A DNA stretch of 64,000 nucleotides, taken from an uncultured Spirochaetota bacterium. GTDB lineage: Bacteria; Spirochaetota; Spirochaetia; SZUA-6; CAVTHK01. Location of the stretch: the NCBI GenBank assembly GCA_963734495.1, contig CAVTHK010000011.1, positions 416,001 through 480,000 of the forward strand. The letters run 5' to 3'. Positions 1,392 to 27,938 of the stretch are shown in pieces (position 1 is the stretch's first letter; each line of letters starts with the position of its first letter). Below the pieces are notes generated by a model. It was not told the DNA's origin. It did no database searches and saw nothing but the letters and a program-made list of their open reading frames with translations. The position numbers were made by a program, and so were the translations under genes.

Positions 1392-4300
1392 GTGGGGTAC
1401 CATTTGCTGCTAAGGGGGGATGCCAAAGACGCCATCCGCTCAAGACAGCGATCGGAGAGGCTCGCACATCGGGCACTGTCGCGTCGAGGAGCCGGGTCTT
1501 GCGGTGGTGATCGCGTCTGCATCCGCGGAATGGAGACACGGCAGGCCACTCAAGGCAGACATTCCCCGTCCGTGCAGGCCGTGCGTCGCATGCCGCGCAA
1601 CCTGCGGCTCAGCCGTATGCGTGATGGAGCCGGTTGCCGGTCCGCGCCAGCTCTCCCCTTGCCGCTTCTCATATGTCCTGCTGTTCCGGCGCCGTGTCAC
1701 ACCCCAGGAGCCACTGCGCTAGCAGGCGCGAGACGAACGGCGGCATCGCGCTCAGACAGGTTCTCGCGCCTCCGATCTTCCCTCACGCTGCTCCTTTTTC
1801 TGGCAACCTCGGTTCCCTCCGTCATGGCGCAGTCCTGGTACGATTCCGCATGGACAAGCAGGCAGAAGATAACGATCAACAGCAATGGGGCGGCCTATGG
1901 TCTGTCCGCAAGCCTGACCAGGTTCCCTTTCCTGCTCAAGATCACCGACGGCGGCAACGATCTGTTCGTCAGGGCCCAGGCGGGCGGGAACGACATTCTC
2001 TTCACGGCAGAGGATGGCACCACCAGGATCCCCCACGAGATCGAGAACTTCAGCAACGGGGGCACCAAGGACCTGACCGCCTGGGTCCAGCTGCCGACTT
2101 TCCGATACGACGCGGTCACCGTGATCTACATGTACTACGGCAACGCGAGTGTGGGGAGCCAGCAGCAGAAACGGGAGGTCTGGGACGCGACGTTCGGGAC
2201 GGTTTACCACCTCAAGGAAACCGGCACCGCCGGCAACTACGAAGACAGCACGCGCAACGCGAACGCCGGGCTGGGAGGGACGATCACCACCAACCAGGCG
2301 CCGACGAGGAGCACGGACAGCATTGCGGGATACAGCCAGGACCTCGACGGAACGGACGACTTTGTCAAAGTACCGGGCCTCATGGGCCAACCCGTAAACG
2401 CCACTGTCAGCGCATGGGTGAACCTCGATGCGCCAAGCAGTGCTCTCGGATCCACCGTCTTCTCCATCGGCGACAGCCTGGTTCTCAGCCTGGACCACGC
2501 GACACCAACGGGTCACGTGGTCGGCTTTTTCTATGACGGAGCGGCCTGGCGAGTGACTGACACGACCGTGACTGTTGCGGGGACAGGCTGGCACCATGTG
2601 GCCTACCGGCTGGACGACGCGGCGCACGGGTCGTACGTGTACATCGATGGCGTCCAGCAGGGCGCGGCGAACTACGCGGGAAGCCCGACGTACACCCTGG
2701 GGTCTGACACCTATATCGGAAAGCACGGCAACGGCTCGGCGGGAGTTGAGTTCAACGGGCGCATCGACGAGCTGAGGTTCTCCGGCGCGTCCCGGTCACC
2801 GGACTGGATCAAGACAGAGTACCAGACCCAGGCGGCCTCGGCGCAGGGGGCGCCTGCAAGCCCGGACACCGTGGACAACACCAGGTTCATCAAGCAGAAG
2901 GAGCGGCAGCTTCCCTATTTCCAGTACAAGCGTGCGCTGACGATCAACGCCGGCATGGTGCTGGGGACCCACACGGATTTTCCGGTCCTGGTCCACGTGA
3001 CTCTGAATCCTGCGCACGTGATGAACGCCAACGGCTACGACACCATGTTCACCGATGACAACGGCGTGCCTCTCTCGCACGAGATCGAGTCCTACAACAG
3101 CGGCACCGGCGAGCTGTGGGCGTGGGTGAAGGTGCCGACGCTGCAGAGCTCCGCAGATACGGTTCTCTATCTCTACTACGGAAACGGGAACCTCGTCTCG
3201 CCTCCGTCGGCGATGGCGGTCTGGAACAGCAGCTACGGGATGGTTCAGCATCTGAACAAGGATCCTTCCGGGTCGCAGACAGACAGCACCGCGAATGGGA
3301 ACAACGGCACCAGCAACGGCATGACTGCGGGCAACCTGGTGGATGCCATGATAGGAAAAGGCGTTCAGTTCGATGGGAGCCACTACATAACCGTGCCGAG
3401 CAGCGCGAGTCTGAATGCAACGGCCGCGCTTACCCTGTCCGCATGGGTCAAGCTTACCGACTCGACCAACGACCAGAAGATCCTTGGGAAGACCAACAGT
3501 CCCGCCCCCACCCGCGGTTATCTCATTGGGGCGCAGACCGCCGGGCTGTACCCCGAAACCTGGGACAGCCTGGGTACCCACAGGACCTTCAACTCCGGTA
3601 CGATCACGTCCGGCCAGTGGACCTATCTGACGCTCACGTCGACCGCCAACGGCAATATGATCGGCTACGTCAATGGCGTCCAGGTGAACAGCATCTCGGC
3701 CGGCACCAACAACCTGGGCACCAGCGCCGGTGCTTTGGTCATGGGCGCCGCTCCCTGGGATCCGACCCAGCTCCGTGCGACCGGAACCCTGGACGAAACG
3801 CGTGTTTCAACAAGCGTCCGCTCCGCCAACTGGATCGCCACCGAGTACAACAACCAGAGCGACACGACGATAGGGGCCGGCAAGTTCATCAAGAGCGTCG
3901 GGGCGGAGACGACGGCGTATCCCTCGTGGTGGAATGCGAGCTGGAATTACCGCAAGACCTTGACTCTGAATGCAGACAAGGTGGGAACGAACAACATACC
4001 CAAGGACAACAGCGACCTGGCAAACATGCCGGTGCTCCTGAGCTTCACGGATGCGGAGATCGGGTCGGCCGCGCAGTGGAGCGGAAACGACATCGCCTTC
4101 ACGATCAACGGACAGAAGCTCGATCATGAGCTGGTGAGCTTCGACAGGAGCTCGGGCAAGATGATCGCGTGGGTGAAGATCCCAGCGATCTCCTCGTGGA
4201 TGGACACGAGGGTGGACGTGTATTATGGGAACCCCGCCGCCTCGAACCAGCAGAATGTCGCGGGGACATGGAGCAACGGGTTCTCCGGCGTCTGGCACCT

Positions 4301-7300
4301 GGAGGAGGCCGGCGGAGGGGTCACTTCCGTCTACCGGGACAGCTCTCCGGCGGGCAACGACGGCACCAGCGGCACGTTTACCGTTACCGGCACGCCGACG
4401 GCCGGGCCGGCGAAGATCGCCGGCGGACAATCCTTTGACGGCATCGCCAACACCATCACCACCTCCTGGACGATCGCAAATCCCCAGGAGTTCACCCTCT
4501 CCGCGTGGGTAAATACGAGCTCGACCACGGGAAACAAGATCATCGGCTTCGAGAATGCCCAGACCGGAACGGGAACTACGATCTTTGACCGGTCCCTGTG
4601 GATCGGGACGGACGGAAGGGCCTACTTCGGCTGTTACAGCGGCACTACGGACATCGCGGCGTCGGCCTTAACCTACAACAACGGCGCCTGGCACTACCTG
4701 GTAGGTGTACGCAACGACACGACGGACACGCTCACCCTGTACGCGGACGGAGCGCAGGTGGGCACGAAGGCGAATGCGAGTGCGGAGGTGAGGACGCAGT
4801 GGTGGCGAATCGGGAGCTACAAGAACGTGGGCTGGACGAACGGGGCTGATGGGTACTTCCCGGGCACCCTTGACGAGGTACGCATATCCTACGCGGCGCG
4901 GAGCGCAGACTGGGTCAAAGCTGAATACGTCAACCAGAACGCACCGGGGAGCAACATCACCATCGATCCGCCTCCCACCCTGTGGACCTGGACAGGGGCT
5001 TCGGGAGCCCCCTGGTCGGTCAACGGGAACTGGGATCAGGGCATTTATCCGAACGACAACACGCGACAGGTCCTCGTTGGGGGGACGGGTGGTCCGCAGC
5101 TCGGGGAGAACATCGCGATCAAACGCCTGACGATCGAGGCGGCGCACAGCGTCGATCTCAACGGGTACACGCTGTCGATCGATGACGCGAACGGCCTGGA
5201 AAACCAGGGCACGGTGTATTTTAGCGGCAGAACGGGAGTGAGCAGCGACGCGATCTCGCGGATGGACACCACGTCGGGGACGGTCGTGTATCGGACGACT
5301 GCCGCGTCGATTCGGGACTTCGGGGCGGTCGATTACTACAATCTCACTGTCGACGGGATCACGGCGGACCTGGTCTCCGACATCACGGTGGCGGGAAATC
5401 TGGCCCTTGCGAACAACGCCACGCTGAACCTGAACGGTCACACACTGACGGTCCTGGGGGACTCGACCGGAACGGGGACAGTGGCCGCGGGCAGCGGGAC
5501 GCTGGTGGTGAAAGGTAATCTGACGGTCAGCGCTTTGTCGTCCACGACCGGAAACATCCAGATTGCCCGCATTTTCAACCCCGGCGCCTTCACGGCGGGG
5601 ACGGGCACCGTGGAATTCATCGACCCTGCGTGGAACGGGGAGATTCTGGGCAGCCGGACCTTCAACAATCTGAGGATCGTCACGCCGGGCAAGACCGTGC
5701 TTTTCCAGAACGGCACGACACAGATAGTGGCGGACTTTACGGTCACCGGCACGATCGGCTCGCAGGTGAGCCTGCGGAGCACCACGGACGCAAGCCAGTG
5801 GACCATCACGCCGACCACCAAGTCCGTGAGCTACGGGTACGTAAAGGACAGCATCGCGAGCTCCGTGATCAGCGCGAACAACAGCACCGACGGTGGGAAC
5901 AACAACGTCAACTGGCAATTCAACTCGGCCGGCCAGCTCCACCACTTTGCCATCTCCGCGATCGCCAGCCCCCAGATTGCCGGGGCGCCGTTCTCGGTCA
6001 CGATCACGGCGCAGGACATATTGAACGCGACGGTGGCGGGATTCACGGGCACGGTGACGATCAGTGACCGCACGGGAACTGTGACACCCCTGGTGAGCGG
6101 GAGCTTCGCGGGCGGGGTGCGGACCGAGACGGTGATCATCGGAGCCGCGGCGACGAACGTCACGATTGTGGTCAACAACGGGACAATTGCGGGCCAGAGC
6201 GCGAGCTTCGACGTGCAGGCGTATACGCCGTTCGTCGGTCTCATCGGCCACTGGAGGTTCGACGATGGCTCTGGAACGACGGCGATCGATTCGTCCGTGA
6301 GCTCCAACCCCGGGACGCTGGTAAACGGTCCGACGTGGACGGCCGGACGCGTCGGGGGCGCCGTGAGCTTCGATGGGACCGACGATTACGTGACCGTGGC
6401 AAATGAGGCCACATACGACGTCACGGGCAACCTGACTGTGGCGGCATGGATCAAGGTCGATACGTTCACGAAACAGTGGCAGTCGATCGTGACCAAGGGC
6501 GACAGCGCGTGGAGGCTGCTTCGCAACAACCTGACCGACGCCCTGTGTTTTGCCGGGACCGGACTGACAGCCGACACCGTGTATGGAACGAGGAATGTCA
6601 ACGACGGTCAGTGGCACCATGCGGTCGGAGTGTACGACGGCACCAGGCTGTCCCTGTACGTCGACGGCACTCTGGACGCGTCGGCCGCGTCGACGGGCGC
6701 GATCGGCACGAACAACTACAATGTGTTCATCGGGGAGAACGCTCAGGCGACGGGACGGCAGTTCGACGGGCTGATCGACGATGTGCGCGTCTACAACCGG
6801 GCCCTGAGCGCCACTGACGTCTCCGCTCTCTACTACGACCCGACCTCCGTCGTCACCATCACCGCTCGTCAGACGGAAGACGCTGACGGAGACGGCCGCA
6901 TCGATCGCATCAAGGTCACCGCCAGCGAGGCTCTCAACGACGCTTTTGCCGGCTTGACGGTCACGGTGTCGGGCTACACGCTCTCCCTGCCGACCAGCTA
7001 TGACACCGGCGGCACTGCCAACGATGCGGTGTTCTATGTTCTCATCAACGAGGGCGGAAGCCCCGACTCGGGGGCGACGCCTGCGGTGCGGATCACGGGC
7101 AACAGCAGCCTCAAGAACCTATCGGGCACGAGATGGGTTGCCCCGGATCCTGCAGCCGTGCCTGCGACCGATCTTGCGGCACCCGTTCTGAGCAGCGTAA
7201 GCCGCGCCGACGGCGGCAACAACGGTGCGGGCGCCGGGGATACCATCACTCTCGTCTATAGCGAGGCGCTGTCCGCTGCCTCGATCAGCGCGGCCCTGGT

Positions 7301-10300
7301 GGGAGCGAACGCCAACAACGCCCTGGCCGCGGGGAGCGGGAACATCACTGGCGCTTTGGCCGACATCATCGCAGAGTCAGGCAGCTTTGCCACACCGACG
7401 ACCGCGACCGCGAGTGCAACCACCCTGACCTTGAGCGCCGACGGTCGTACCGTGACCGTTACGCTGGGCGGGACCGTTGTCGACGGCGTGTTCCCCGCGG
7501 GCGTGTTTACCCCCGTCGCCACCTACGGCGATACGCACGGCAACGCCGCGAACACCGCGGCCACACAGACTGCCACGGGGACGTGGGACGGGACCGCGCC
7601 GCAGCTCGTGAGTGTCACCCTGGCCGACGCAGGCAACGCGGGGGCGGGAATCGGCGACACGATCACCCTGATCTACAACGAGGCTTTGTCTGCAGCTTCG
7701 ATTTCTGCCGCCCTGGTCGGGGCCAACACCAACAACGCCCTGGCCGCAGGCAGCGGGAACATCACCGGCGCTCTGGCTGACATAGTCGCGGAGCTGGGCA
7801 GTTTCGCCACCCCTGCGACCGCGACCGCAAGTGCAACCACCCTGGCGCTGAGTGCCGACGGGCGGACGGTGACCATCACGCTCGGTGGCACTGTGGCCGA
7901 CGGCGTGTTCCCCAGTGGCGTCTTTACGCCGGCAGGGACCTACACCGACCGCTATGGTGCCAACACCATCAACACAACAGTCACGCGGACTGCCGGCGGG
8001 AGCTGGGACGCGACTGCACCTCAGTTGGTGAGCGTCGCTCTGGCTGACGCGGGGAACGCAGGCGCAGGGGTCGGCGACACTGTCACGCTGGTCTACAACG
8101 AAGCGCTGTCCGCCGCTTCGATTTCTGCTGCGCTGGTCGGGGCCAACACCAACAACGCGCTGGCCGCGGGCAGTGGGAACATCACCGGCGCTCTGGCCGA
8201 CATCATCGGGGAGATGGGCGGATTCGCCACCCCTGCGACCGCGACCGCGAGTGCAGCCACGTTGACCTTGAGCGCCGACGGGCTGACGGTGACCATCACC
8301 CTGGGCGGCACGGTGGCTGACGGCGTGTTTCCTGCCGGCGCCTTTACCCCTGCGGGGTCCTATACCGACCGTTATGGTGCCAACGTCGTCAACACCAGCG
8401 TCACCCAGACTGCCACTGGGAGTTGGGACGCGACCGCGCCGCAGCTCGTGAGTGTCACTCTGGCCGATGCGGGCAACGCAGGGGCCGGGGTCGGCGACAC
8501 GGTCACCCTGATCTACGACGAGGCGCTTTCCGCCTCATCCATAAGCGCGGTGCTGGTGGGTGCCAACACTAACAACGCCCTGGCTGCGGGAAGCGGGAAC
8601 ATTACCGGCGCTTTGGCCGACATCATCGCAGAGTTCGGCAGCTTCGCCACACCGACGACCGCGACCGCGAGCGCAGGCGCCCTGACACTGAGCGCCGACG
8701 GGCGGACGGTGACCATCACCCTGGGCGGAACGGTGACTGACGGCGTGTTCCCTGCCGGCGTGTTCACGCCGGCGGCGAGCTACACGGATGCGCACGCGAA
8801 CAGCGTCGATGTCGCGGTGACCCAGACCGCCAGTGGGAGCTGGGACGCGACAGCGCCGCAGATAGTGAGTGTGAACCTTGCCGATGCAGGCAACGCAGGC
8901 GCGGGGATCGGCGACACCATCACGCTGGTCTACAACGAAGCGCTGTCGGCAGCTTCGATCAGCGCGGCGCTGGTCGGGGCCAACACCAACAACGCGCTGG
9001 CCGCGGGCAGCGGGAACGTCACGGGCGCCTTTGCCGACATCATTGCGGAGCTGGGCAGCTTTGCCACACCGACGACGGCGACCGCGACTGCAACCACCCT
9101 GACGCTGAGTGCCGACGGGCGGGCGGTGACGATCACGCTCGGCGGGACTGTGGCCGATGGTGTCTTCCCTGCCGGCGTGTTCACGCCGGCGGCGAGCTAC
9201 ACGGACGCGCACGCAAACAGCGTCGATGTCGCGGTGACCCGGACCGCTGGCGGGAGTTGGGATGCGACGGCGCCGCAGTTGGTGAGCGTAACCCTGGCTG
9301 ACGCAGGCAACGCGGGGGCGGGAGTCGGCGACACCATCACGATGGTCTACAACGAGGCGCTTTCCGCCTCATCCATAAGCGCGGCGCTGGTGGGTGCCAA
9401 CACCAACAACGCGCTGGCCGCGGGCAGCGGGAACGTCACGGGCGCCCTGGCCGACATCATCGCGGAGCTGGGCAGCTTTGCCACACCGACGACGGCGACC
9501 GCGAGCTGCAACCACCCTGACCGCTGAGTGCCGACGGGTTGACGGTGACCATCACCCTGGGCGGAACGGTGACTGACGGCGTGTTCCCCGGTGGCGTCTT
9601 CACCCCCGCGGGGACCTACACCGACCGCTTCGGCGGCAACGTGGTAAACACCAGCGTCACCCAAGCTGCCGGCGGGAGTTGGGACGCGACGGCGCCGCAG
9701 TTGGTGAGCGTAGCCCTGGCTGACGCAGGCAACGCGGGGGCGGGAGTCGGCGACACGATCACGCTTGGTCTACAACGAGGCGCTTTCCGCCTCATCCGTA
9801 AGCGCGGCGCTGGTCGGGGCCAACACCAACAACGCGCTGGCCGCGGGCAGCGGGAACGTCACGGGCGCCCTGGCGGACATCATCGCGGAGCTGGGCGGCT
9901 TTGCCACCCCGACGACAGCGACTGCCAGCTCAACCACACTGACCGTGAGCGCCGACGAGTTGACGGTGACCATCACCCTGGGCGGGACGGTGACTGACGG
10001 CGTGTTCCCTGCCGGCGTCTTCACGCCGACGGCGACCTACACCGACCGCTTCGGCGGCAACACGATCAACACCGCGGTGACGCAGACGGCCGCGGGGAGC
10101 TGGGATGCGACGGCGCCTCAGTTAGTGAGTGTCACCCTTGCCGATGCGGGCAACGCAGGGGCGGCGACGGGCGACACTATCACGCTTGTCTACAACGAGG
10201 CGCTGTCGGCCGCTTCGATTTCTGCGGCGCTGGTGGGCGCCAACACGAACAACGCGCTGGCAGCGGGCAGCGGCAACATCACCGGCGCCCTGGCCGACAT

Positions 10301-13300
10301 CATCGCGGAGCTGGGCAGCTTCGCCACGCCAACGACCGCCACCGCGAGTGCAGCGACCCTGGCGCTGAGCGCAGATGGTCGTACCGTCACCCTCACCCTG
10401 GGCGGCACCGTGGCTGACGGAGTGTTCCCAGGCGGACTCTTTACTCCGGCTGCCACCTACGGCGACACGCACGGCAACACAGTGAACACCGCGGTCACCC
10501 AGACTGCGACCGGGACCTGGGACGCGACGGCGCCGCAGTTGGTGAGCGTCACTCTGGGTGACGCAGCAAACGCGGGGGCCGGGGCTGGCGACACTATCGG
10601 GCTGGTCTACAACGAGGCACTGTCGGCCGCTTCGATTTCTGCTGCCCTGGTTGGGGCCAACACCAACAACGCGCTGGCCGCGGGCAGCGGCAACATCACC
10701 GGCGCCCTGGCGGATATCGTCGCGGAACTGGGCGGCTTCGCCACCCCGACGACCGCGACTGCCAGTGCAACCGCGCTGGCCCTGAGCGCTGACGGCCGCA
10801 CGGTCACCATCACGCTGGGTGGGACGGTGGCTGACGGCGCGTTCCCTGGCGGGCTCTTCACTCCTGCTGCCGCCTACAGCGACACCCACGGCAACACGGT
10901 CAACACCGCGGTCACTCAGACTGCCACCGGCACGTGGGACGCGACGGCGCCGCAGCTCGTGAGCGTCACGCTTGCCGATGCCGGCAACGCAGGCGCGGGT
11001 GTCGGCGATACGATCACGCTGGTCTACAACGAAGCGCTGTCGGCCTCCTCCATCAGCGCCGCTCTTGTGGGTGCCAACATCAACAACGCGCTGGGTGCGG
11101 GCAGCGGCAACATCACTGGCGCTCTGGCGGACGTGATCGCGGAGCTGGGCGGCTTCGCCATCCCGACCGCAGCGACCGCGAGTGTCACCACCCTGACGCT
11201 GAGTGCCGATGGGCGTACGGCAACGATCGCCCTGGGTGGGACGGTGGCTGACGGCGTGTTCCCGGGCGGCGTCTTTACGCCGGCGGCGACCTACACCGAC
11301 CGCTTTGGCGGCAACACGATTAACACAACGGTGACGCCGACTGCGACCGGGAGCTGGGATGCGACCGCACCGCAGTTGGTGAGCGTCACTCTAGGTGACG
11401 CAGGAAACGCCGGGGCGGGGGTTGGCGACACGATCACGCTGGTCTACAACGAGGCGCTTTCCGCCTCCTCGATCAGCTCTGCTCTGGTGGGCTCGAACAC
11501 AAATAACGCGCTGGCCGCGGGTAGCGGCAACGTCACGGGCGCCCTGGCCAACGTTATCGCCGAGTTGGGCAACTTCGCCACGCCGGCGAGCGCCACCGCG
11601 TCCGCAACCACCCTGACGCTGAGCGCTGACGGCCGCACGGTCACTATCACCCTGGGCGGTACCGTCGTCGACGGGACGTTCCCCGCGGGTGTGTTTACCC
11701 TTGTCGCCACTTACAGCGACCCGCACGGCAACACAGTGACCACCGCGGTAACTCAGACTGCCACCGGAACCTGGGACGGTACGGCGCCGCAGCTTGTGAG
11801 TGTCACTCTGGCCGACGCAGGGAACGCAGGGGCAGGGGTCGGCGACACCATCGCACTTGTCTACGACGAAGCGCTGTCAGCCTCCTCGATCAGCACGGCT
11901 CTTGTGGGCGGCAACACCAACAACGCGCTGGCCACCGGCAGCGGGAACATCACCGGCGCGCTGGCCGACATCGTCGCGGAGCTGGGCAGCTTCGCCACGC
12001 CGACGACGGCGACCGCGAGCGCAACCACGCTGACCCTGAGCGCCGACGGCCGCACGGTGACCGTCACGCTCGGCGGCACCCTGGCCGACGGCGTGTTCCC
12101 TGCCGGAGTCTTTACGCCGGCGGCAAGCTACACCGACGCGCACGGCAACGTCGTCAACACCGCGGTCACGCAGACCGCCACCGGGACGTGGGATGGCACG
12201 GCGCCGCAGCTGGTGAGCGTCACGCTCGCCGATGCAGGCAACGCAGGGGCTGGGGCCGGCGACACCATCACGCTGGTCTACAACGAGGCTCTTTCTGCCG
12301 CTTCGATCTCTGCCGCCCTGATTGGGGCTAGCGTCAACAACGCGCTGGCTGCGGGCAGCGGGAACATCACCGGCACCTTGGCCAACGTCACCGGGGAGCT
12401 GGGCAGCTTCGCGACGCCGACCACGGCGACCGCGAGTGCAACCACCCTGACGCTGAGCGCCGACGGTCGCACCGTCACCCTCACTCTGGGCGGCACAGTG
12501 GCCGATGGCGTGTTCCCCGCCGGCGTGTTTACCCCTGTCGCCACCTACACCGACACGCACGGCAACATCGTGAGCACTGCGATTACTCAGACTGCCACCG
12601 GGACTTGGGACGGCACGGCACCGCAGCTCGTGAGCGTCACGCTTGCCGATGCGGGCAACGCGGGCGCAGGCGCGGGCGACACGATCACGCTGCTCTACAA
12701 CGAAGCGCTGTCTGCCTCCTCGATTAGCGCCGCTCTGATGGGCGGCAACACCAACAACGCCTTGGCAGCAGGCAGCGGCAACATCACCGGCGCGCTTGCC
12801 GACATCATCGCAGAGCTGGGGAGCTTCGCCACCCCGACTACGGCGACTGCCAGTGCGACCACCCTGACGCTGAGCGCCGACGGTCGTACGGTCACCCTCA
12901 CTCTCGGCGGCACAGTGGTCGACGGCGTGTTCCCCGCCGGCGTGGTTACCCCGACGGCAAGCTACGCCGACGCGCACGGCGAACGGCATCAACACGGCGG
13001 TGACGCAGACTGCCACCGGGAGCTGGGACGCGACCGCGCCGCAGCTTGTCAGCGTCACCCTGGCCGACGCAGGAAACGCGGGAGCGGGCGTCGGCGACAC
13101 CATCACGCTGGTCTACAACGAGGCGTTGTCTGCCTCCTCGATCAGCGCGGCCCTCGTGGGGGCCAACGCCAACAACGCGCTGGCTGCGGGCAGCGGCAAC
13201 ATCACCGGCGCCCTGGCGGACATTATCGCGGAGCTCGGCAGCTTCGCCACACCCACGACGGCGACCGCCACCGCCACGACGCTGAGCCTGAGCGCCGACG

Positions 13301-16085
13301 GCCGGACGGTGACCATCACGCTCGGCGGCGACCGTCGTCGACGGCACGTTCCCCGCCGGCGTGTTTACCCCTGTCGCCACCTACGCCGACGCGCACGGCA
13401 ACATCGTGAGCACTGCGGTGACGCAGACTGCCACCGGGAGTTGGGACGGCACGGCGCCGCAGCTCGTGAGCGTCACGCTTGCCGATGCGGGCAACGCAGG
13501 CGCGGGTGTCGGCGACACGATCACGCTGGTCTACAACGAAGCGCTGTCTGCCGCCTCGATCAGCGCAGCTCTTGTGGGTGCTAACACCAATAACGCCCTG
13601 GCTGCGGGCAGCGGCAACATCACCGGCGCCCTGGCCGACATCATCGCGGAGCTGGGCAGCTTCGCCACGCCCACGACCGCGACGGCCAGCGGCGACGACC
13701 CTGACCCTGAGCGGCGACGGTCGCACGGTGACCGTCACGCTCGGCGGCACCATGGCGACGGTGTCTTCCCTGCCGGCCTGTTCACACCGACGGCCAGCTA
13801 CGCTGACGCGCACGGCAACGCCATCAACACAGCCGCGACGCAGACTGCCACCGGCACGTGGGACGCGACGGCGCCGCAGCTCGTGAGCGTCACCCTGGCC
13901 GACGCGGGCAACGCCGGGGCTGGGGTCGGCGATACGATCACGCTGGTCTACAACGAGGCGCTGTCGGCCTCCTCGATCAGTGCCGCTCTGGTGGGCGCCA
14001 ACACGAACAACGCTCTGGCTGCGGGCAGCGGCAACATCACCGGCGCTCTGGCGGACATCATCGCCGAGCTGGGCAGCTTCGCCACGCCCACGACCGCGAC
14101 CGCAAGCGCCGCCACCCTGACCCTGAGCGCCGATGGCCGCACGGTCACGATCACGCTCGGCGGCACCGTGGCTGACGGCGTGTTCCCCGCCGGCGTCTTT
14201 ACGACGACGGCGAGCTACACCGATGCGCACGGGAACGTTATCAACACCGCGGTGACGCAGACGGCCACGGGCACGTGGGACGGGACCGCGCCGCGGCTGG
14301 TGAGTGTGACGCTGACTGATGTGGGCAACGCAGGGGCGGCGCCCGGGGACACGATCACGCTGGTCTACGACAAGGCGTTGTCCGCGTCCTCGATCAGCGC
14401 GGCGCTCGTTGGGGCGGACACCAACAACGCCCTGGCTGCAGGCAGCGGCAACGTCACCGGCGCGCTTGCCGACATCATCGCCGAGCTCGGCAGCTTCGCC
14501 ACCCCGACCACGGCTACAGCGACTGCGACCGTTCTGACGCTGAGCGCCGACGGGCGCACAGTGACCATCACCCTCGGCGGCACCGTGATCGACGGCACAT
14601 TCCCCTCGGGAGTGTTCACCCCGGCCGCCACCTACACCGACACCCACGGCAACACCGTGAACACCGCGGTGACGCAGACGGCAACCGGCGACTGGGGCGT
14701 CCGCCCGATGATCAGCTCCCTGACGACGGCCGACGTCGACGGCGACGGCTGGATCGATCGCCTCGTCGTGACCTTCAACCGCAACGTCAATCCGGCCACA
14801 ATAGTGTCGGCGCGGTTCTCCACCGATGTCGGCTCGGTCGCCGGTGTCACCAACGACGCGCCCGACGACCCGGCTGCGATCTGGGTAAACCTCGTCGACG
14901 GCGTGCTCGACACGGGTCGGACGCCTCGGCTCAGCATCGCAACCGACGGCATTCGCGACACCTTTGGCGTCCCCAACGGCGCGATCTCTCTCCATTTGTC
15001 GGTGGACAACGCCCGGCCGGTCATCCTGTACACGCTGGCCGTCGCGGGCCAGAGCAGGATTGCGGTGCATTTCTCGGAGGCGGTGAGCCACACGCTCGCG
15101 GCCGATTTCACGTACAGCGGCGCGCCGAGCGTTTCGAGCGTGCCCACGAACGGAACGCCTTCCTACATGATCGTTCTCACCGGCGCGATCCCGGAAAGCG
15201 ACATCACCGGCGCCGTGCCTGCTGACGATCACGATCAACGCGATGGTCGTCGATGCGGTCGCCCTCTCGGTGGATGCCGGCGGGCCGCAGCCACAGGGTC
15301 TCGGACCTCGGGCTCGGCATCATCGCCCCGGTCTGGGCCAGGTCCTCGCAAGGTTCCGGAGAGACGCTGACGATCTTTGACGGCACCCGGGGCGTCATGG
15401 CGGGCGACATATCGCTGCAGGCGACCGTGCGCACGGTGCCCCCTGCGGCTTCGCCCACGTACGCAGGCGCTGCCGTGACCACGGCTTATCCGACTGTTGA
15501 CCTTCTGTACGACGTCGACGCGGCTGCGGCCTACGTGTCGAACGGCCTGTGGCTGCCGGCGGCGGTCCCGGGCCTGGTGCCTGCCGCGAACCCCGCCGCG
15601 CGGACACTGTCGCAGGCATCGTCGCTGAACGCGCTGCGAGATTACCTGATCCCCAGCACCGACCCGGAAGTCCGCGCGGGATCCGAAATCCAGTTCTTCT
15701 TCGGGGTGGGCGGCCTGGTGCATGCGAGAGTCGCCAATCCCGTGGACCCCAACTCCATCGGGCCATGGAGGTTGCCGCTCGAGGCACTCCGCACGAGCAG
15801 CGAGGCAAGGTCACCATCGCCAACAACGTCGTCAATCCGACTGCGGGCGAGACGACGCGGCTGACGGTCGCGCTCGAAGAACGGGGGAGCCTCTCGGTGA
15901 CAGTGTTCGACCTCAAGGGAGACATCGTGCAGGTGCTCTTCCGCGGGACCGCGGAGCGCGGCGAGCACGTGTTCGGCTGGGACGGCCGCAACCGGGGTGG
16001 CCGTGATGTCGCCCGCGGGATCTACTTCATCAAAGTCGTCGCTCCCGGAGTCGAGGAGATCCGCAAGGTCCTGATCGTGAAGTGA
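1392..16085 (+). CDS. Giant secreted/surface adhesin-like protein: 3x DUF2341-LamG, LamG, 18x 139/140-aa Ig-like repeats, C-terminal FlgD-Ig domain (reconstructed across frameshifts; true start uncertain, between about 1392 and 1750)
   Basis: ORFs 1392-9527, 9539-, 9765-, 13000-, 13361-, 15253- and 15549-16085 join through single-base indels at about 9506, 9521, 9765, 12981, 13330, 13691/13755, 15220-15285 and 15790. Signal-like LTLLLFLATSVPSVMA-QSW. DUF2341 motifs (W..RQKITIN, DILFT..DG, HEIE, AWV, YMYYGN). LamG motifs (WHHVA, G.IDE.R.S). C-terminus VFDLKG..V..L...WDGRN..G..VARGIYFIKV...IRKVLIVK. Confidence 0.85.
7170..14695 (+). repeat. 18 tandem intragenic repeats of 417/420 bp (139/140 aa)
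   Basis: The 'VYNEALS' anchor recurs at 7256, 7673, 8093, 8513, 8930, 9347, 9770, 10190, 10607, 11024, 11444, 11861, 12278, 12695, 13113, 13531, 13948 and 14365. Confidence 0.97.
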
Positions 16086-16202
16086 CCCCCGGGCCGGTGG
16101 ACCCTGCCAGGCGACTCGCGCAGACTCGCGAACGCGGGTTTGCAGCCGGCCCGGGCCGATGCTACGCTTGAGACACCGCTCGAGACAGCGAGGAGGTCAC
16201 TG

Positions 16203-17204
16203 GTGTCGCATCAACCCGTCCCCAAGCTCGCCGGCATCAGCCCCTCGTCCTGGGAGCACCCCGCCGACAAGGCGGCGTTGAGCGTCCTCAGGCAGACCGG
16301 AGGCCTCGGCGACATCATCAAGATGATCGTCGGGGGCACCACGGAGAAGTCGATCCGCCTCCTGCACATCGCGTCCTCGGTCAAGGTGGGCCCCAATCAG
16401 TTCCCGAGGATCAAGGGGCTCCTCGACAAGGCCGCGGAAGTGCTGGACTCGCCCTCCGTTCCCGACGTTTTTGTCGTGAACGATCCGCGCTTCAACGCAG
16501 GCGTTGCCGGCGTCAAGGAGCCCTTCATCGTGGTCCACTCAGGCCTCCTCGCCTCACTCGACGACGACGAGCTCTACTGCGCTCTCGCGCACGAGCTGGC
16601 GCACATCCTGTCGGGGCACAGCGTCTACAAGACGGTCCTCTGGGTCCTGCTCCGGATTTCACTCAGCGCCATCCCGATCGCCGGCCTTCTCATCAAGCCT
16701 CTGGTCCTCGCCCTGCGCGAGTGGGACCGCAAGAGCGAGCTGACTGCCGACCGCGCGGCGCTGCTCGCGTCGCAGAGCGAGCAGCCGAACTACAACCTGC
16801 TCATGAAGGCGGCAGGTGGAAGCGACCTCTCGCAGATGAACGCCAACGACTTCTTTCAGCAGGCCTGGGAATACGAAAACCAGAAAGGCCTCCTGGACGG
16901 CATCTTCAAGATCCTCAACACAGCCTGGGAGAGTCACCCTTTCGCCGTCGTGAGACTGCAGGAGCTGCGGTCCTGGGCGGCATCGGGCGCATACCAGTCC
17001 ATCCTCGGCGGCGATTACGTCAGGCGCGACTCCGAGAAGCGCGACGCCTCCCAGGACGCGAGCGAGGCCTATCAGCACTACAAGACCACCGTCGAACAGA
17101 GCGACGATCCCGTGATCAAGGCGGTCCGAGGGGTCGGCAGCGCTCTCGGCGAGGCGACGAAGGGCGTGCGTGACGCCATCAAGGAGATCTTCAAGAATCC
17201 GTGA
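16203..17204 (+). CDS. M48-family (HtpX/Ste24-like) zinc metallopeptidase
   Basis: AHELAH (HExxH), RKSELTADR and ESHPFAVVRL motifs. AGGAGG RBS before GTG 16203. TTGCAG-17-TACGCT promoter-like element upstream. Confidence 0.88.
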   Translation: MSHQPVPKLAGISPSSWEHPADKAALSVLRQTGGLGDIIKMIVGGTTEKSIRLLHIASSVKVGPNQFPRIKGLLDKAAEVLDSPSVPDVFVVNDPRFNAGVAGVKEPFIVVHSGLLASLDDDELYCALAHELAHILSGHSVYKTVLWVLLRISLSAIPIAGLLIKPLVLALREWDRKSELTADRAALLASQSEQPNYNLLMKAAGGSDLSQMNANDFFQQAWEYENQKGLLDGIFKILNTAWESHPFAVVRLQELRSWAASGAYQSILGGDYVRRDSEKRDASQDASEAYQHYKTTVEQSDDPVIKAVRGVGSALGEATKGVRDAIKEIFKNP

Positions 17205-18989: not shown

Positions 18990-19001
18990 GGCGCCGGCAG
19001 C

Positions 19002-19790
19002 TCAGGGCACGCTGTTCCCGACGGGCGCGAGAGGCTGCTCCCTGAAAGCGGCGACGAACGACACGATCGAGGCGACGGCCCGCTCGATGATGGCGCGCCC
19101 CTTCTCCGCGGTGGCGCCGGTGGGATCGCCCCAGCCTCCCAGGTCGCAGAAATCAGAGAAATCAGGATAAGTGAAGAAGGGCCCCCCGGCGAGCGCCGTG
19201 TAGGCGCCGTGGAATTGCAGCGCTTCCCGGGGCGCGCTCCATTCCGCACGGGCGACGTCCACCAGGTCGGGTCTCAGCGCCATGATGACGCTCGCGATGA
19301 CTTCGCCGCCGTGCCCGGTGGGGTGGGCCGTCGGGCCGGCGATCCCCTTGGAAGCGGCAAACGCGGCCTGCCACCACATCGCCTGGGCCACGGGGACGCC
19401 GCGGGCGCGCAGGGTCCGGCCGCACGCGTCGATCGCGCGCATGTTCATCATGTGGGTGTTGAGGAACAGCAGCCGGCGCACGCCGTCGCGCACGAGCGAG
19501 GATGCAACGTCCAGGTAGAGAGCTTTCAGAGTATCCGGGTCGATCGTGATCGTGCCGGGCCAGAACCGCAGCTCCAGCGCGTCGCCCACGGGGATGACCG
19601 GCGCGACGAGGCATCCCGTGGTCTCCCCGAGCCTTCGCGAAATCGCGTCCGCTACGAACGAATCGCATCCGAGCGGGCCGTACGTCCCCAGCACTTCCGT
19701 CGATCCCACAGGGATGATCGCTGTGTCCGTTTCGGCGAGGGCGGCTTGGAACTCGCGGCTCGTCATCTCGCTCATCACCACCCGCTTCAT
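19002..19790 (-). CDS. Creatininase/creatinine amidohydrolase family protein
   Basis: EMTSREF, AIIPVGSTE..G..GPLGCD, LFLNTH..N, GHGGE...S, GGWGDPTGATAEKG. ATGA overlap with the upstream gene's stop. Confidence 0.85.
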   Translation of the reverse strand: MKRVVMSEMTSREFQAALAETDTAIIPVGSTEVLGTYGPLGCDSFVADAISRRLGETTGCLVAPVIPVGDALELRFWPGTITIDPDTLKALYLDVASSLVRDGVRRLLFLNTHMMNMRAIDACGRTLRARGVPVAQAMWWQAAFAASKGIAGPTAHPTGHGGEVIASVIMALRPDLVDVARAEWSAPREALQFHGAYTALAGGPFFTYPDFSDFCDLGGWGDPTGATAEKGRAIIERAVASIVSFVAAFREQPLAPVGNSVP

Positions 19791-20840
19791 GGGGTCTCCG
19801 CGGAAACGGCGACCGGTTTGCCGGTCGCGGCGGACTGCTCGATCGCGAGCGCGATCGCCATGGAGTTGCATGCGTCGAGAACATCCGAGAGCACGGGGGA
19901 GCCGCCCAGGATGGCGTCCACCAGGTTGTCGATCTCCTCGCGGAACGGGTGATGCGTCACCGCCCCGGAGTTGATGGTCGGGGTGGCAATCGTGACAAAG
20001 TCGTTCTGCTCGGGGAACAGCAGCTTCGAATAGATGCGATTGTCCCGGATCGCGCCCCGGGTCCCGAGGAGGTCGATATTCATCTGGTAGGGGAAGGCGA
20101 CCCCGTCGAGCGACGCCGAGAGCTTGCCGACGGTCCCGTCGGCGAACTTGCACCGCGGCCACCAGCGTCGTCGGGTAGTCGAAGTCCTCCCGGGTGCCGC
20201 ACCGATAGGCGCTCACCTCGGCGACCTCGGCCCGCTTGAGGTGGCGTGCGAGGTCGGCCGCGTGGCAGCCGCCGGTGATCATCGCGCCCCCGGCGAACTC
20301 GCGGCGGCGGATCCACTCGTAGCTGGCGAAGGTCGGCTTGATGCCGTGCCAGTAGTCGACCTCCGTGTAGTAGATGTCGCCGATCGCCTTCTGATCCAGC
20401 ACCGCCCGCAGGTTCCTGACCATCGGGTGCCAGCGCGAGACGAAGCTCACCACGGACCGCGTCGTCGCGGCCCGCGCCGCGGCGCGGAGGTCCGCGAGCT
20501 CCTCCCACGTGATGGCAGGCGGTTTCTCGAGGATGAGGTGCTTGCCCGCCCCGAAGGCGGCGATCGCCTCGCGCGCATGGAGGTGGTTGGGCATGCAGAT
20601 CGACACGATGTCGACAGACCCGTCGTCGAGCATGTCTTCGTAGCGGTCATAGATCTTCGGGGCGGGCCCGCTCTGCGGCGCCATCGCGCGGGCCAGCGCC
20701 TCCGATCGCTCCCGCCGCCGGCTCGCCACCGCGGCGAGGCGCAGGTGCGGGTTGGCCGCAATCGCCTTGGCGTGCTCGTAGGCGACCTGTCCGGCGCCCC
20801 TGATTCCGACGCCGAGCACCCGTTCGCTGTTGCCTGCCAT
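19787..20840 (-). CDS. Gfo/Idh/MocA family NAD(P)-dependent oxidoreductase (frameshift at about 20151)
   Basis: VGIRGAGQVA, ICMPNHLH, GKHLILEKP, GGAMITGGCH. The C-terminus continues in frame 19787..20083. Confidence 0.88.
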
Positions 20841-20846
20841 CTCTCG

Positions 20847-21611
20847 TTACACCATTTCCAGGAGGTTGTAGATTTCCAGGCTGTACCGCCCGAACTCCGG
20901 CGAAGTGCGGACCTCGAGCGTCCGCGGCCGCGGGAGGTCGATGTCGAGCGCCTTGATCATCCGGGACGGCCGCGCGGAGAGCACGACCACCCGGTCGGAG
21001 AGGAACACGGCTTCGCCGATCCCGTGGGTCACGAAGAGCACGGTCTTGCGCGCCTCCTGCCAGATGCGCAGCAGCTCCAGGTTCATGCGCTCGCGGGTCA
21101 AAGCGTCGAGCGCGCCGAACGGCTCGTCCATCAGCAGCAGCTTCGGGTCGTGGATCAGCGCGCGCGCGATGGAGACCCGCTGCTGCATCCCGCCCGAGAG
21201 CTCCTTGGGGTAGCTCTTCTCGAAGCCCTTGAGGCCGACAAGCTCGAGCAGGTCCATTGCCTTGCGCTCGAGCGCGGCCCGATCCATCTTCAGGATCTCG
21301 ATAGGCAGCAGGACGTTGTCGAGGACCTTGCGCCAGTGCAGGAGCAGAGACTTCTGGAACACGAACCCCACCTCGCGGCCCGGGTCGAACTGCTCGCGGT
21401 CGACCTGGATCTCGCCGGCGCTCTGCTCGAGGAGTCCCGCGACGATCTTGAGCAGAGTGGTCTTGCCGCAGCCCGAGGGGCCGACGAGGCTCACGAACTC
21501 GCCGGGGAAGACGTCGAAGGTCACGCTGCCCAGCGCCTCGAGCTCCCCGTCCCGGGTGCGAAAGGTCTTCTTGAGACCGCGGATCGAAAGAAGCGGTTTC
21601 CTGTCGGCCAC
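20847..21611 (-). CDS. ABC transporter ATP-binding protein (TauB/SsuB/NitT type)
   Basis: GPSGCGKTT, LSGGMQQR, LLMDEPFGALD, FVTH. Confidence 0.95.
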   Translation of the reverse strand: MADRKPLLSIRGLKKTFRTRDGELEALGSVTFDVFPGEFVSLVGPSGCGKTTLLKIVAGLLEQSAGEIQVDREQFDPGREVGFVFQKSLLLHWRKVLDNVLLPIEILKMDRAALERKAMDLLELVGLKGFEKSYPKELSGGMQQRVSIARALIHDPKLLLMDEPFGALDALTRERMNLELLRIWQEARKTVLFVTHGIGEAVFLSDRVVVLSARPSRMIKALDIDLPRPRTLEVRTSPEFGRYSLEIYNLLEMV

Positions 21612-21697
21612 GAGGTCTCCTCGGCTTGAGCCTGCGGAGGGAGCAGCTGCCGCGCGGCGTCGCGAGGACGCGCGCCGCGCGGCAGCCTTCCTTCATT

Positions 21698-22723
21698 CTA
21701 CCAGTTGTACTTGTACATCGGCTTGGGCAGGAGGTCCGCCGTGTACATGTCCTCCGGCGCGAACGGGATGGCCACGCCCTGGTAGGTTCTGACCAGGTCG
21801 ATGGTCTCCTTGAGCCGCGCGGGGTCGATGTATCCGATGCCGTTGTTCCGGTAGCGGTCGGTCTTGAAGAAGTCCATGACCACCTTGAGGTTCGCGAGGT
21901 AGTCCGCCTCGTTGATGGGGTGGTGCTTGGCGAGGATCGAGATCGCCTCCTCGGGATTCTTGAGCGTGTAGTCCCATCCGCGGTAGGCCGCCTTGAGGAA
22001 CTTGCGGACGAGCTCGGGGTTGTTCTTGATGACGTCGTCGCGCGCGATCAGGGAGTGAGCATAGGCGTTGAACCCGTAGTCAGCCCAGAGGAAGACCCCG
22101 AGCTGGGCCGGCGGGATCGCCTTTTCCATGAAGGGCTTGCCGGTGTACAGCTCGAACACGACGTCGGCGTTCCTGGAAGCCAGCGCCGCCACCTTGGCCG
22201 AGGGCGCGATGTTGACGAACTTGACCGAAGCAGGATCGACGCCGATGAGCTTGGCGAACGCGGGCCACATCACCTTGTGTCCGTCCGCGGCCGGAACGGC
22301 AACGGTCTTGCCGGCGATGTCCTGCGGCTTCGTGATCCCGGAGTCCTTCCAGAAGTACATGGCGTTGGGGTGCTTGTCGAAGAGGATCCCGACGATCCTG
22401 ACCTTGGCCCCCTCGGCCCGCATCTTGATCGGGACGGGCGCGTCGGAAATGCCGATCTCGGCCTTTCCGCTCTCGAGGGCCTGCACCGTGTACCCCGAGC
22501 CCTGGCCGAGGATGACGTTGACCTCGAGCCCCTCTTCGGCGAACCACCCCTTGTCCATCGCGACGTAGTACGGAGCGTGGTCGCCGGTGATCTGCCAGTT
22601 CAGCTGGAAATTGACCTTCTGCATCTGCTTCGGGGCCGAAGTCTCGCTCTGCGACGAAGCCCATCCGGCGGCAGCGGCCAGCGCCAGGACTGCAGCCACC
22701 ATCAACACTCTTCTGCCTTTCAT
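21698..22723 (-). CDS. ABC substrate-binding protein, NMT1/THI5-like
   Basis: Signal peptide, then FQLNW...DHAPYYVAMDKGWFAEEGLEV. AGGAGG RBS before ATG 22723. Confidence 0.88.
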   Translation of the reverse strand: MKGRRVLMVAAVLALAAAAGWASSQSETSAPKQMQKVNFQLNWQITGDHAPYYVAMDKGWFAEEGLEVNVILGQGSGYTVQALESGKAEIGISDAPVPIKMRAEGAKVRIVGILFDKHPNAMYFWKDSGITKPQDIAGKTVAVPAADGHKVMWPAFAKLIGVDPASVKFVNIAPSAKVAALASRNADVVFELYTGKPFMEKAIPPAQLGVFLWADYGFNAYAHSLIARDDVIKNNPELVRKFLKAAYRGWDYTLKNPEEAISILAKHHPINEADYLANLKVVMDFFKTDRYRNNGIGYIDPARLKETIDLVRTYQGVAIPFAPEDMYTADLLPKPMYKYNW

Positions 22724-22772
22724 GAGGCACCTCCTTGCCAAGCTGTACGCGGACCAACGGTCCGATGTCGGG

Positions 22773-23561
22773 TCACAATCGGGTCTGCTCTTGCTCGTGC
22801 CAGGGCATCGCGGCCCGCTCGACGAGCGCGACCACGCCGAACAACGCCACCCCCAGCACGGAGACCACGATCAGGGCGGCAAAGATCGGCGGCGTGTCCA
22901 TCGTGAACTGCGAGTTGACGATGATGTAGCCGAGCCCGCGGTCCGAGGCCACGAACTCCCCCACGATCGCTCCCACCACCACCATCGTGGAACAGATCCT
23001 GAGGCCGGAAAAGATGTACGGCAGCGAGTTGGGGAGGCGTATCTTGACGAAGACCTGCCACTTGCTCGCGTGCAGGTAGCGGACGAGGTCGATCAGGTCT
23101 TCGTCGATATCGGAGAGCCCGGTAGCGGCGTTGATGACGACGGGAGAAAAGGACACGAGGAACGCGATCAGGATGTTCGTGGCGAGCCCGTAGCCGAACC
23201 ACAGGAGAATGATGGGCGCCACGGCGACGATCGGCAGCGAGTTCACGAACAGGAAGAACGGCATGATGAGGTCGCGCAGCCACCGCGACCAGGAGATCGC
23301 GACGGCAAGCGCGACGCCGGCGACGGCCGTGACGGCAAAGCTGATGACCACCTCCGAGACGGTCGTGCCGATCTGGAGCTTCCAGTTGTAGAAGGCGCCG
23401 GGCTGCCGGACAAAGAGGTGAGCGAGCGCAGAGACCGGCGACGGCAGGACGAACTCCGGGATCGCGAACACCATGACCGCCGCCTGCCACAGCGCAAAGA
23501 GCGCCGCGACAACCAGCAGCGTAGAGGAGTTGTTCCTGAAAGCGGTCCAGATTCTGCGCAC
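22773..23561 (-). CDS. ABC permease (SsuC/TauC type)
   Basis: FVLPSP, P..AVAP..LLWFGYG, KIRLPNSLPYIFSGL, VGEFVASDRGLGY. GTG start after GAGGG. Confidence 0.92.
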   Translation of the reverse strand: MRRIWTAFRNNSSTLLVVAALFALWQAAVMVFAIPEFVLPSPVSALAHLFVRQPGAFYNWKLQIGTTVSEVVISFAVTAVAGVALAVAISWSRWLRDLIMPFFLFVNSLPIVAVAPIILLWFGYGLATNILIAFLVSFSPVVINAATGLSDIDEDLIDLVRYLHASKWQVFVKIRLPNSLPYIFSGLRICSTMVVVGAIVGEFVASDRGLGYIIVNSQFTMDTPPIFAALIVVSVLGVALFGVVALVERAAMPWHEQEQTRL

Positions 23562-23571
23562 AGCCGTCCCT

Positions 23572-24354
23572 CTAGGAGACCGGTGCATCCGTCTGCCACG
23601 GCATCGCGACCTTCGAGAGCGCCGAGACCCCGCCGAACAGGGCCAGGCCGAAGACGGAGATGAGGATCAGGCTGGCGAACATGGGAGGCGTGTCGATCAT
23701 CGCCTGCGAATCCTTGAGCAGGTACCCGAGCCCCTTGTCCGAAGCGACGAACTCGCCGACGATCGTGCCGACGACGCAGAGGGTCGAGCTGATCTTGAAT
23801 CCGGAAAAGATGTACGGAAGCGAGTTGGGGATGCGGATCTTGAGGAACACCTGCGCCTTGCCGGCGTGGAGGTAGCGGACGAGGTCGAGGAGGTCCTGGT
23901 CGACGGCGTTCAGGCCGGCCGTCGTGTTGATGATCACGGGAAAGAACGCGATCAGCACCGCGATGACGATGTTGGGAACCAGGCCGTATCCCAGCCAGAT
24001 CAGGAACAGCGGGGCAAAGGCGATCTTGGGCAGCGAGTTCAGAAGCGCGAGCACCGGCGTGATGATCCTGCGCATCGTCGCCGACCACGTGATGAGCAGC
24101 GCCACCAGCACCCCGCAGACCGCGGTCACGCAGAAGCTGATGAGGACGGCCGAGACGGTAGCTCCCGCGTGCTCGAGCCAGTGGTAGCGGGGCGCGACCG
24201 CCGGATCGACGAGCGCCGCAAAGGTCTTCTGCGGCGACGGGATGATGAAGGGCTTGACGCCGAACACGCTGACGAGCATCTGCCAGACGAGCAGGAACGC
24301 GGCCAGCGCAATGAGCTTCGCGATGTGCTTTCGGGCGAACGCCGGCGCCTTCAC
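23572..24354 (-). CDS. ABC permease (SsuC/TauC type), paralog of the adjacent permease
   Basis: PKIAFAPLFLIWLGYG, KIRIPNSLPYIFSG, VGEFVASDKGLGY. Confidence 0.92.
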   Translation of the reverse strand: MKAPAFARKHIAKLIALAAFLLVWQMLVSVFGVKPFIIPSPQKTFAALVDPAVAPRYHWLEHAGATVSAVLISFCVTAVCGVLVALLITWSATMRRIITPVLALLNSLPKIAFAPLFLIWLGYGLVPNIVIAVLIAFFPVIINTTAGLNAVDQDLLDLVRYLHAGKAQVFLKIRIPNSLPYIFSGFKISSTLCVVGTIVGEFVASDKGLGYLLKDSQAMIDTPPMFASLILISVFGLALFGGVSALSKVAMPWQTDAPVS

Positions 24355-24360
24355 CCGCTC

Positions 24361-24389
24361 AGACTAGAAGCATGCGGGCCATTTGTCAA
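24361..24389 (-). promoter_or_regulatory. Sigma-70 promoter of the NMT1-ABC operon (leaderless geometry)
   Basis: TTGACA(24389-24384)-17-TAGTCT(24366-24361), then 6 nt to GTG. Confidence 0.7.
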
Positions 24390-24409
24390 CCAAGACCGCC
24401 GCGAGCGGC

Positions 24410-25804: not shown

Positions 25805-25815
25805 GAGAGAGCTCC

Positions 25816-27822: not shown

Positions 27823-27938
27823 GGGACCCTCCTCTTTGCGGGACGGGGGCCAGCATACAGGGCGGCGCCGCAGCGGGCAAGGCGCGTTCGCTTGCGCGTT
27901 CGCTTGCGCGCGGCACAGCGAGCGGATAGCCTCTGTGC

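Follow-up and report, generated by a model that had tools for sequence, protein, structure and literature searches.

Our analyses support the presence of a single giant gene on the forward strand of a 64 kb stretch of DNA from an uncultured Spirochaetota bacterium (contig CAVTHK010000011.1, positions 416,001 to 480,000; hereafter the window, with a G+C content of 62-73% in 2-kb bins). The gene extends from position 1617 or 1659 to a stop codon at 16083-16085 and likely encodes a secreted surface protein of ~4,800 amino acids (aa), in which the insertions and deletions (indels) that disturb the reading frame would most likely be consensus errors and which the living cell would probably make in full. 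Read through these interruptions, the reconstructed protein comprises 4,806-4,895 aa depending on the start, or ~4,749 aa after removal of the predicted leader, and is organised as an N-terminal head, a stalk of 18 tandem units and a C-terminal base. In public gene calls the gene is represented by products of 2,567 aa and 669 aa. Because gene callers split this gene of ~4,800 codons at assembly indels, catalogues built from such contigs miss the giant protein.

When the forward strand is divided into open reading frames (ORFs), a first piece at 1392-9527 (2,711 codons) is followed by further pieces at 9521-9997, 9714-13409, 12874-13584, 13313-15370, 15226-15864 and 15501-16085, each of which runs on into the next. 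The breaks within the repeat array were placed by DNA alignment of the 18 repeat units, and those beyond the array by three-frame reading and alignment to the intact tail of an orthologous protein encoded at a related locus, designated L001. Ten single-base breaks, delimiting 11 in-frame pieces, were located in this way, all of them between 9508 and ~15790; eight are +1 (insertion-like) and two are -1 (deletion-like), giving a net gain of six bases that returns the last piece to the frame of position 1392. A previous reading of the window made from the sequence alone (hereafter the sequence-only reading) had joined at least seven ORF fragments by removing indels, and while the joining itself stands, its count, equivalent to about six breaks, was too low. 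The three insertions that it had placed at about 9506, 9521 and 9765 were recovered by repeat-unit alignment as extra bases at 9508, 9523 and 9765 relative to the other 17 units, with the original frame restored after the third. A second group, defined by the same comparison, consists of extra bases at 12981, 13330 and 13692 and a missing base at 13756, and three more frame changes (~15217, ~15278 and ~15790) fall in the tail region at 15086-15797 (+), outside the array, where the intact L001 tail served as reference.

As the sequence-only reading had proposed, the region is one gene and not several: one piece gives way to the next exactly where a repeat unit departs by a single base from the other 17. 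The ~4,800 codons contain no stop other than those created by the frame shifts, and the L001 ortholog (protein P0121, 'uncultured Spirochaetota bacterium') forms an ORF that runs from stop to stop over 3,791 codons without interruption.

Breaks of the same kind are found in ordinary genes of the window. A Pfam scan of its 44 other candidate ORFs, followed by a scan of 39 alternative-frame fragments, identified at least five genes in which a Pfam domain continues in another frame, with six breaks, all six of them +1, at ~20.2 kb (-), 29.1-29.2 kb (+), 44.2-44.4 kb (-, two breaks), 53.0-53.1 kb (-) and 54.7-54.8 kb (+). The affected products are a GFO/IDH/MocA oxidoreductase, a PfkB kinase, an oligopeptide-type ATP-binding cassette (ABC) ATPase, an SMP-30/gluconolactonase and a glycoside hydrolase (GH) of family GH31. 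In each gene the profile match breaks off in one frame and is taken up again in another: PfkB is matched over positions 4-63 in a first frame and 63-301 in a second, Glyco_hydro_31 over 2-95 and 94-326, SGL over 1-174 and 175-244, GFO_IDH_MocA_C over 3-70 and 115-218, and ABC_tran over 2-47 and 85-137, the last with a third-frame stretch in between. Since the six breaks in these five genes are all +1, the whole contig appears to carry insertion-biased indels, and the recurrence of the same +1 breaks in ordinary genes, together with the uninterrupted L001 ortholog, makes assembly error rather than decay the likeliest origin of the interruptions. Judged from these sequence comparisons, the frame breaks of the giant gene are very probably assembly errors. 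Error is also favoured by P0123, an independent fragment from another source that carries the window's stalk domain and has out-of-frame stretches of its own, and by the related Spirochaetota locus L004, whose head is spread over three ORF pieces.

The gene is unlikely to begin at the GTG at 1392 that opens the first ORF piece, since third-codon-position G+C gives no coding-frame signal over 1201-1801. Two in-frame candidates, ATG 1617 and TTG 1659, lie upstream of a Sec-like leader, so that the interval 1617-1829 (+) would comprise one or the other of these starts followed by a Sec-type signal peptide (~1731-1829), read by eye, that ends in RRTAASRSDRFSRLRSSLTLLLFLATSVPSVMA directly ahead of QSWY. 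The public gene call begins at ATG 1824, inside the leader, and thereby cuts the signal peptide off. A hydrophobic leader ending just ahead of QSWY or QDWY was likewise recognised by eye in the homologs P0002, P0003 and P0004 and in the L001 protein. In all five proteins (that of the window, P0002-P0004 and that of L001) predicted cleavage of the leader exposes an N-terminal glutamine (A/QSWY or A/QDWY, the slash marking the cleavage point). The first DUF2341 region opens with the motif QSWYDSAW, one of the two patterns by which relatives in many phyla were retrieved.

The head follows the domain order foreseen in the sequence-only reading, with three DUF2341 and LamG pairs and a fourth LamG, as confirmed by Pfam (gathering cutoffs of 23.4 bits for DUF2341, PF10102, and 27.6 bits for Laminin_G_3, PF13385). 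On the forward strand, the first pair occupies 1986-2183 and 2346-2810 (32.6 and 68.9 bits for DUF2341 and Laminin_G_3, respectively), the second 3033-3221 and 3372-3839 (38.2 and 74.5 bits) and the third 4083-4271 and 4458-4916 (32.6 and 71.2 bits), and the fourth Laminin_G_3 at 6372-6824 is matched at full length (positions 1-151 of 151; 116.6 bits). With three DUF2341 and four Laminin_G_3 domains above the cutoffs, six of them in alternating pairs, the protein belongs with the giant DUF2341/LamG surface proteins. Between the third pair and the fourth LamG, a beta-rich segment rich in W, G and N followed by an immunoglobulin (Ig)-like stretch (4971-6230, +) belongs to no named family and is conserved in P0002-P0004 and L001; this segment had no Pfam match, and its best ESM Atlas score, 0.79, was uninformative. 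After the head comes a first DxDGDG domain (6846-7190, +), which contains TEDADGDGRIDRIKV and shares 43% identity with the DxDxDG domain in the tail of L001. Neither this domain nor its second copy at 14708-15085 belongs to a Pfam family, and both align to the one L001 domain; in P0124, P0125, P0129 and P0130 a domain of the same type likewise stands ahead of the stalk domain. TafC, a haloarchaeal Tat-fimbria subunit according to the available text of PMC11821415, was rejected as the family of the window protein, the NCBIfam score of 78 bits against a cutoff of 410 reflecting mere LamG resemblance.

In the stalk (7176-14701, +), 18 units, each of 139-140 aa (417-420 nt), follow one another in tandem, as the sequence-only reading had counted. 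Over 7206-14696, Tandem Repeats Finder counted 17.9 copies (80% match) of a unit of 417 nt, and anchoring on the TAPQLVSV motif yielded 18 units at a spacing of 417-422 nt. The 13 units that are in frame show a mean column identity of 89%, and the differences between units fall mostly at third codon positions (0.12, 0.09 and 0.40 for codon positions 1, 2 and 3). The unit is not one of the Ig-like stalk families in Pfam (Big_12 and others), as no stalk piece matched a Pfam family at cutoff or any NCBIfam model, and the best match among PDB sequences had an E value of 0.24. A profile of the 13 in-frame units retrieved only 32 proteins at E <= 0.001, the window's own fragment included, from 1.84 billion representative proteins; the matches carry one to five copies of the domain, which in P0125 and P0130 stand directly after the DxDxDG domain. 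Many distant copies were also seen in P0131, a G+C-rich protein of 1,822 aa, with 12 stretches in the large library search and four in a local hmmsearch (domain E <= 1e-3); they may form an older branch of the domain family, set in an envelope protein of another kind.

Modelled by AlphaFold2 with an alignment of 29 sequences, the stalk domain folds into a beta-sandwich with two short helices at high confidence (predicted local distance difference test, pLDDT, 96.9; predicted template modelling score 0.90); a single-sequence fold of two units was unusable (pLDDT 38.9). Foldseek found no match in the PDB to this model at E <= 0.001, its best hit being a weak one to domains of the S-layer protein SbsC (4uic; E 0.012, TMq 0.44, 12% identity). 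The stalk unit is thus, as predicted by the model, a genuine and rare Ig-like domain without annotation.

The assignment to a probable spirochaete made from the sequence alone agrees with the nearest relatives (79%, 63% and 59% identity), every one of which is from a Spirochaetota or Spirochaetia metagenome-assembled genome (MAG). The first of these, L001, was also the outcome of a suggested search for the same head and tail joined to a different stalk, which are there combined in an uninterrupted ORF. Over 1,712 aa its head is 79.7% identical to that of the window, and DxDxDG domain, tail and terminal domain recur as well, the last at 57% identity; in contrast, its stalk (L001:15266-19402) is built of 13-14 units of 104-105 aa that belong to Pfam Big_12 (191 bits) and match one another at 86%, its single DxDxDG domain stands after the stalk, and its neighbour genes differ. 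A different stalk between the same head and tail implies that the stalk behaves as an exchangeable cassette. In the 63%-identical relative, the partial protein P0002 from a Spirochaetia MAG, the head is shared through the fourth LamG and is followed by a long beta-helix-like region. In the 59%-identical Spirochaetota ortholog (L004:9884-16884), the head is spread over three overlapping ORFs (9884-14059, 13827-14891 and 14608-16884) and has an equally fragmented look. No common flanking genes were detected by tblastx of L001, L003, L004, L041 and L064 against the window, and among longer relatives, searched at 4,746-5,000 aa, no close full-length one was found, the best being 31% identical.

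The C-terminal module of ~460 aa comprises the second DxDGDG domain (14708-15085, +), identified by tblastn against the L001 protein, the tail and a terminal 95-aa domain (15798-16085, +, stop included) that ends in IRKVLIVK, and it recurs in many other large Spirochaetia proteins. The FlgD-Ig tail recognised by the sequence-only reading was verified by Pfam, in which the last 95 aa score 40.5 bits with FlgD_ig (cutoff 27), and FlgD chains in the PDB (7eh9) match the same residues with an E value of 1.8e-5. The protein is not a FlgD hook-capping protein, which would have an N-terminal FlgD domain beside the Ig-like one in ~140-230 aa, as only the Ig-like part matches and the NCBIfam FlgD equivalogs reach 18-34 bits against cutoffs of 230-383. 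The NCBIfam model for the type A sorting domain of type IX secretion systems (T9SS), TIGR04183, also scores above its cutoff on the last 95 aa, although marginally (27.7 bits against 23). A search among longer proteins yielded 54 relatives of the terminal domain (P0154-P0207, 175-1,637 aa) at 31-75% identity (51 of the 54 at 48-75%), some of them labelled as T9SS type A sorting domain, hemagglutinin or autotransporter adhesin. The domain lies at most 10 residues from the C-terminus in all 54 and at most one residue from it in 52, most of these proteins ending in E[I/T/Y]RKVLVVK, and at least 12 of them are homologous over almost the entire 460-aa L001 tail, DxDxDG domain included. Nine of the relatives carry an organism name, and each of these is from a Spirochaetales, Spirochaetia or Alkalispirochaeta MAG. 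In the ESM Atlas, the nearest clusters are described as 'secretion system C-terminal sorting domain' and mix FlgD_ig and Por_Secre_tail annotations (score 0.92, 175 shared features).

These features raise the question of whether the protein ends in a genuine signal for type IX secretion, in which case these spirochaetes would possess a type IX-like pathway for export and attachment. The TIGR04183 score above a curated cutoff, the strictly C-terminal position with a conserved end motif and the sorting-domain clusters among the Atlas neighbours all favour it, and two of the relatives, P0167 and P0184, are named 'T9SS type A sorting domain-containing protein [Spirochaetales bacterium]' in one source. 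Nevertheless, the score is marginal, the domain groups with FlgD Ig in both Pfam and the PDB sequence search, Pfam revealed no type IX secretion genes in the window or the DNA flanking L001, L003 and L004, and the pathway is described as confined to Bacteroidota or the Fibrobacteres-Chlorobi-Bacteroidetes (FCB) group in the abstracts of PMC11611037, PMC11205867, PMC10202324 and PMC7906972. Moreover, a literature search that did not cover subscription journals found no publication linking a type IX-type C-terminal domain to spirochaetes. We therefore regard a true type IX signal as rather doubtful. Similarly tentative, and in our view also rather improbable, is a broader scenario in which the ~460-aa module with its type IX-like sorting domain serves a Spirochaetia lineage as the common export-and-anchor base of giant surface proteins, while close relatives that keep head and base exchange stalk cassettes of unrelated Ig-like families (Big_12 in L001, the unannotated 139-aa domain in the window). 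If true, this scenario would extend type IX-like cargo systems beyond the Bacteroidota/FCB group.

As for function, the protein would cross the inner membrane by Sec, and its C-terminal module would be the part recognised for passage through, or attachment to, the outer membrane. The 18-domain stalk may act as a spacer holding the four lectin-like domains some tens of nm from the cell. Ig-like domains typically span ~4-5 nm, at which size the stalk would be roughly 70-90 nm long. At its far end, the four concanavalin-like LamG domains may bind glycans on particles, polymers or other cells. Glycan binding is predicted from the Pfam superfamily name of the LamG domains, 'Concanavalin A-like lectin/glucanases', and the adhesin function of the protein is likewise a prediction from its domains.

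An intact protein could also serve other purposes, as an S-layer-type structural protein of the envelope or sheath, or as a scaffold that captures polysaccharides for the cell's glycoside hydrolases. The sole fold resemblance of the stalk domain is to SbsC, the superfamily name just given covers glucanases as well as lectins, and the window is rich in genes for sugar degradation and sugar uptake. However, the SbsC match is weak by every measure given above, no SLH or other wall-anchor domain was found by Pfam, and no glycoside-hydrolase neighbour is conserved across the four loci. Furthermore, a single long protein laid out as head, stalk and base is the plan of fibrillar adhesins rather than of lattice-forming S-layers. 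We thus consider a role other than adhesion unlikely.

Several observations weigh against our reading of the region as one gene for a complete secreted surface protein. The start is still represented by two candidates, ATG 1617 and TTG 1659, and surface location, secretion and ligand binding by LamG and DUF2341 are all predicted from domain content. As regards the base, Pfam Por_Secre_tail (PF18962) gave no match at E <= 0.01, no solved T9SS C-terminal domain was matched in the PDB sequence search, and none of the type IX machinery genes (SprA/Sov, PorV, PorU, GldKLMN) was seen in the window and locus flanks; nor do the flanks of L001, L003 and L004 share any conserved neighbour gene with the window, Pfam having found no partner in common. 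As regards the breaks, the final 6.3 kb of the gene contain all ten and its first 8.1 kb are free of them, their density is far above that of the rest of the window (at least six, detected by Pfam splits, in ~48 kb), and none of the indels is in a homopolymer. Poor polishing of the 18-copy repeat could account for most of the clustering, but the three breaks at ~15217, ~15278 and ~15790 are outside the array and are not covered by this explanation.

The clustering of the breaks, their density and their position outside homopolymers are what might be expected if the frameshifts were real and the gene a recently inactivated pseudogene, whose product would be limited to the first ~2,700 aa and comprise the head and five stalk units but no anchor. 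Against this, five ordinary metabolic and transport genes carry the same +1 kind of break, the L001 ortholog is intact, and the giant gene shows neither nonsense codons nor larger lesions. The third-position excess is equal in repeat units on either side of the first break, with differences at codon positions 1, 2 and 3 of 0.135, 0.075 and 0.38 upstream and 0.11, 0.085 and 0.39 downstream. A strong insertion bias, here eight of ten and elsewhere in the window six of six, is also not usual in bacterial gene decay. We accordingly hold inactivation to be highly improbable, and assembly error remains our explanation of the breaks. Several separate genes are ruled out by pieces that lack independent starts and continue one another exactly, and phase variation by slippage is ruled out by breaks that do not lie in simple-sequence tracts. 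The indels of the array were also considered as marks of merged reads from different units; all seven adjoin a variable column, but 249 of the 417 core columns vary (60%), 156 of them strongly, and chance suffices to explain the coincidence.

The surrounding genes suggest, from their predicted products, a sugar-degrading organism. Carbohydrate genes are dense at 19,000-31,800 and 42,500-63,800, where we found GH42, GH2, GH39 and GH31 enzymes and several sugar and oligopeptide ABC transporters, together with a major facilitator superfamily sugar symporter and an adenosine deaminase with a PfkB kinase. Such a context would suit a protein that attaches to polysaccharide or other cells. At 32,200-34,600 there is no coherent long ORF, and the sole match is a fragment of GH42 on the minus strand at 33565-34431, covering profile positions 16-85 of 376. 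This interval, near the intact GH42 gene at 25819-28092, may represent a beta-galactosidase gene that has decayed or been heavily broken.

Beyond the recovery of a giant gene split in public annotation, three leads emerge from this study: a rare stalk domain that folds confidently and has no family annotation; evidence that the stalk is swapped while head and base are retained among close relatives; and a C-terminal module resembling those used for sorting or anchoring, so far restricted to Spirochaetia among named matches. The last would gain the greatest importance from the discovery of a matching export machinery, and current understanding stays as it is unless the question of secretion is answered.

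Comparison with known systems places the window protein among stalked surface proteins. Stalked fibrillar adhesins, such as the type I-secreted repeats-in-toxin (RTX) adhesins and the autotransporters, present a ligand-binding region on many tandem Ig-like domains above a cell-anchored base, and the window protein has this head-stalk-base layout in common with them. It differs in having its predicted anchor at the C-terminus, its head at the N-terminus and a Sec leader; no piece of it matched RTX repeats or an autotransporter beta-barrel (Pfam, NCBIfam) or LPXTG (Pfam). Type A cargo of type IX secretion (TIGR04183), which includes many large surface adhesins and glycan-degrading enzymes, resembles it in combining an N-terminal Sec leader with a terminal beta-sandwich of ~80-95 aa. 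The differences are the marginal score, the lack of machinery genes in the window and locus flanks, and the host, a spirochaete here, whereas the abstracts cited above assign the pathway to Bacteroidota or the FCB group.

Giant DUF2341 proteins have been encountered in other contexts, and the available texts attribute several roles to them: adhesion or host interaction is proposed for those of Patescibacteria (PMC11809585), a pilus-tip adhesin role for DUF2341 in archaeal type IV pilus loci (PMC4858521), and on MotA-like proteins DUF2341 is an appendage of unknown function (PMC12505986). The patescibacterial and archaeal proteins are, like that of the window, very large predicted surface proteins, and matches include Patescibacteria, Thermoplasmata and Promethearchaeota; in contrast, identity is ~30%, no stalk or C-terminal module is shared and function is merely proposed.

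Parallels in overall plan are provided by giant DUF2341/LamG proteins ending in FlgD_ig, namely P0049 (3,859 aa, from a 'Fibrobacteria bacterium' MAG), P0091 (3,633 aa, 'Fibrobacteres bacterium' MAG), P0035 (3,627 aa) and P0210 (4,815 aa). They are of similar size, carry 4-5 DUF2341 and 5-6 Laminin_G_3 domains, and have FlgD_ig ~20 residues from the C-terminus at most. They are uncharacterised, come from other phyla or from no named organism, and are only 24-28% identical to the head; some of them include a right-handed beta-helix, PA14 or GH43_C2 domain, and none is among the 32 matches of the stalk profile. The sequence-only reading had not recognised the architecture as a described one, and indeed no publication describing it was found within the same literature coverage, although the general plan also occurs in these Fibrobacterota MAG proteins and in others of unnamed origin (3,627-4,815 aa). 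The window protein is therefore a member of an already known, uncharacterised kind of giant surface protein, whose general plan is not unique to its lineage.

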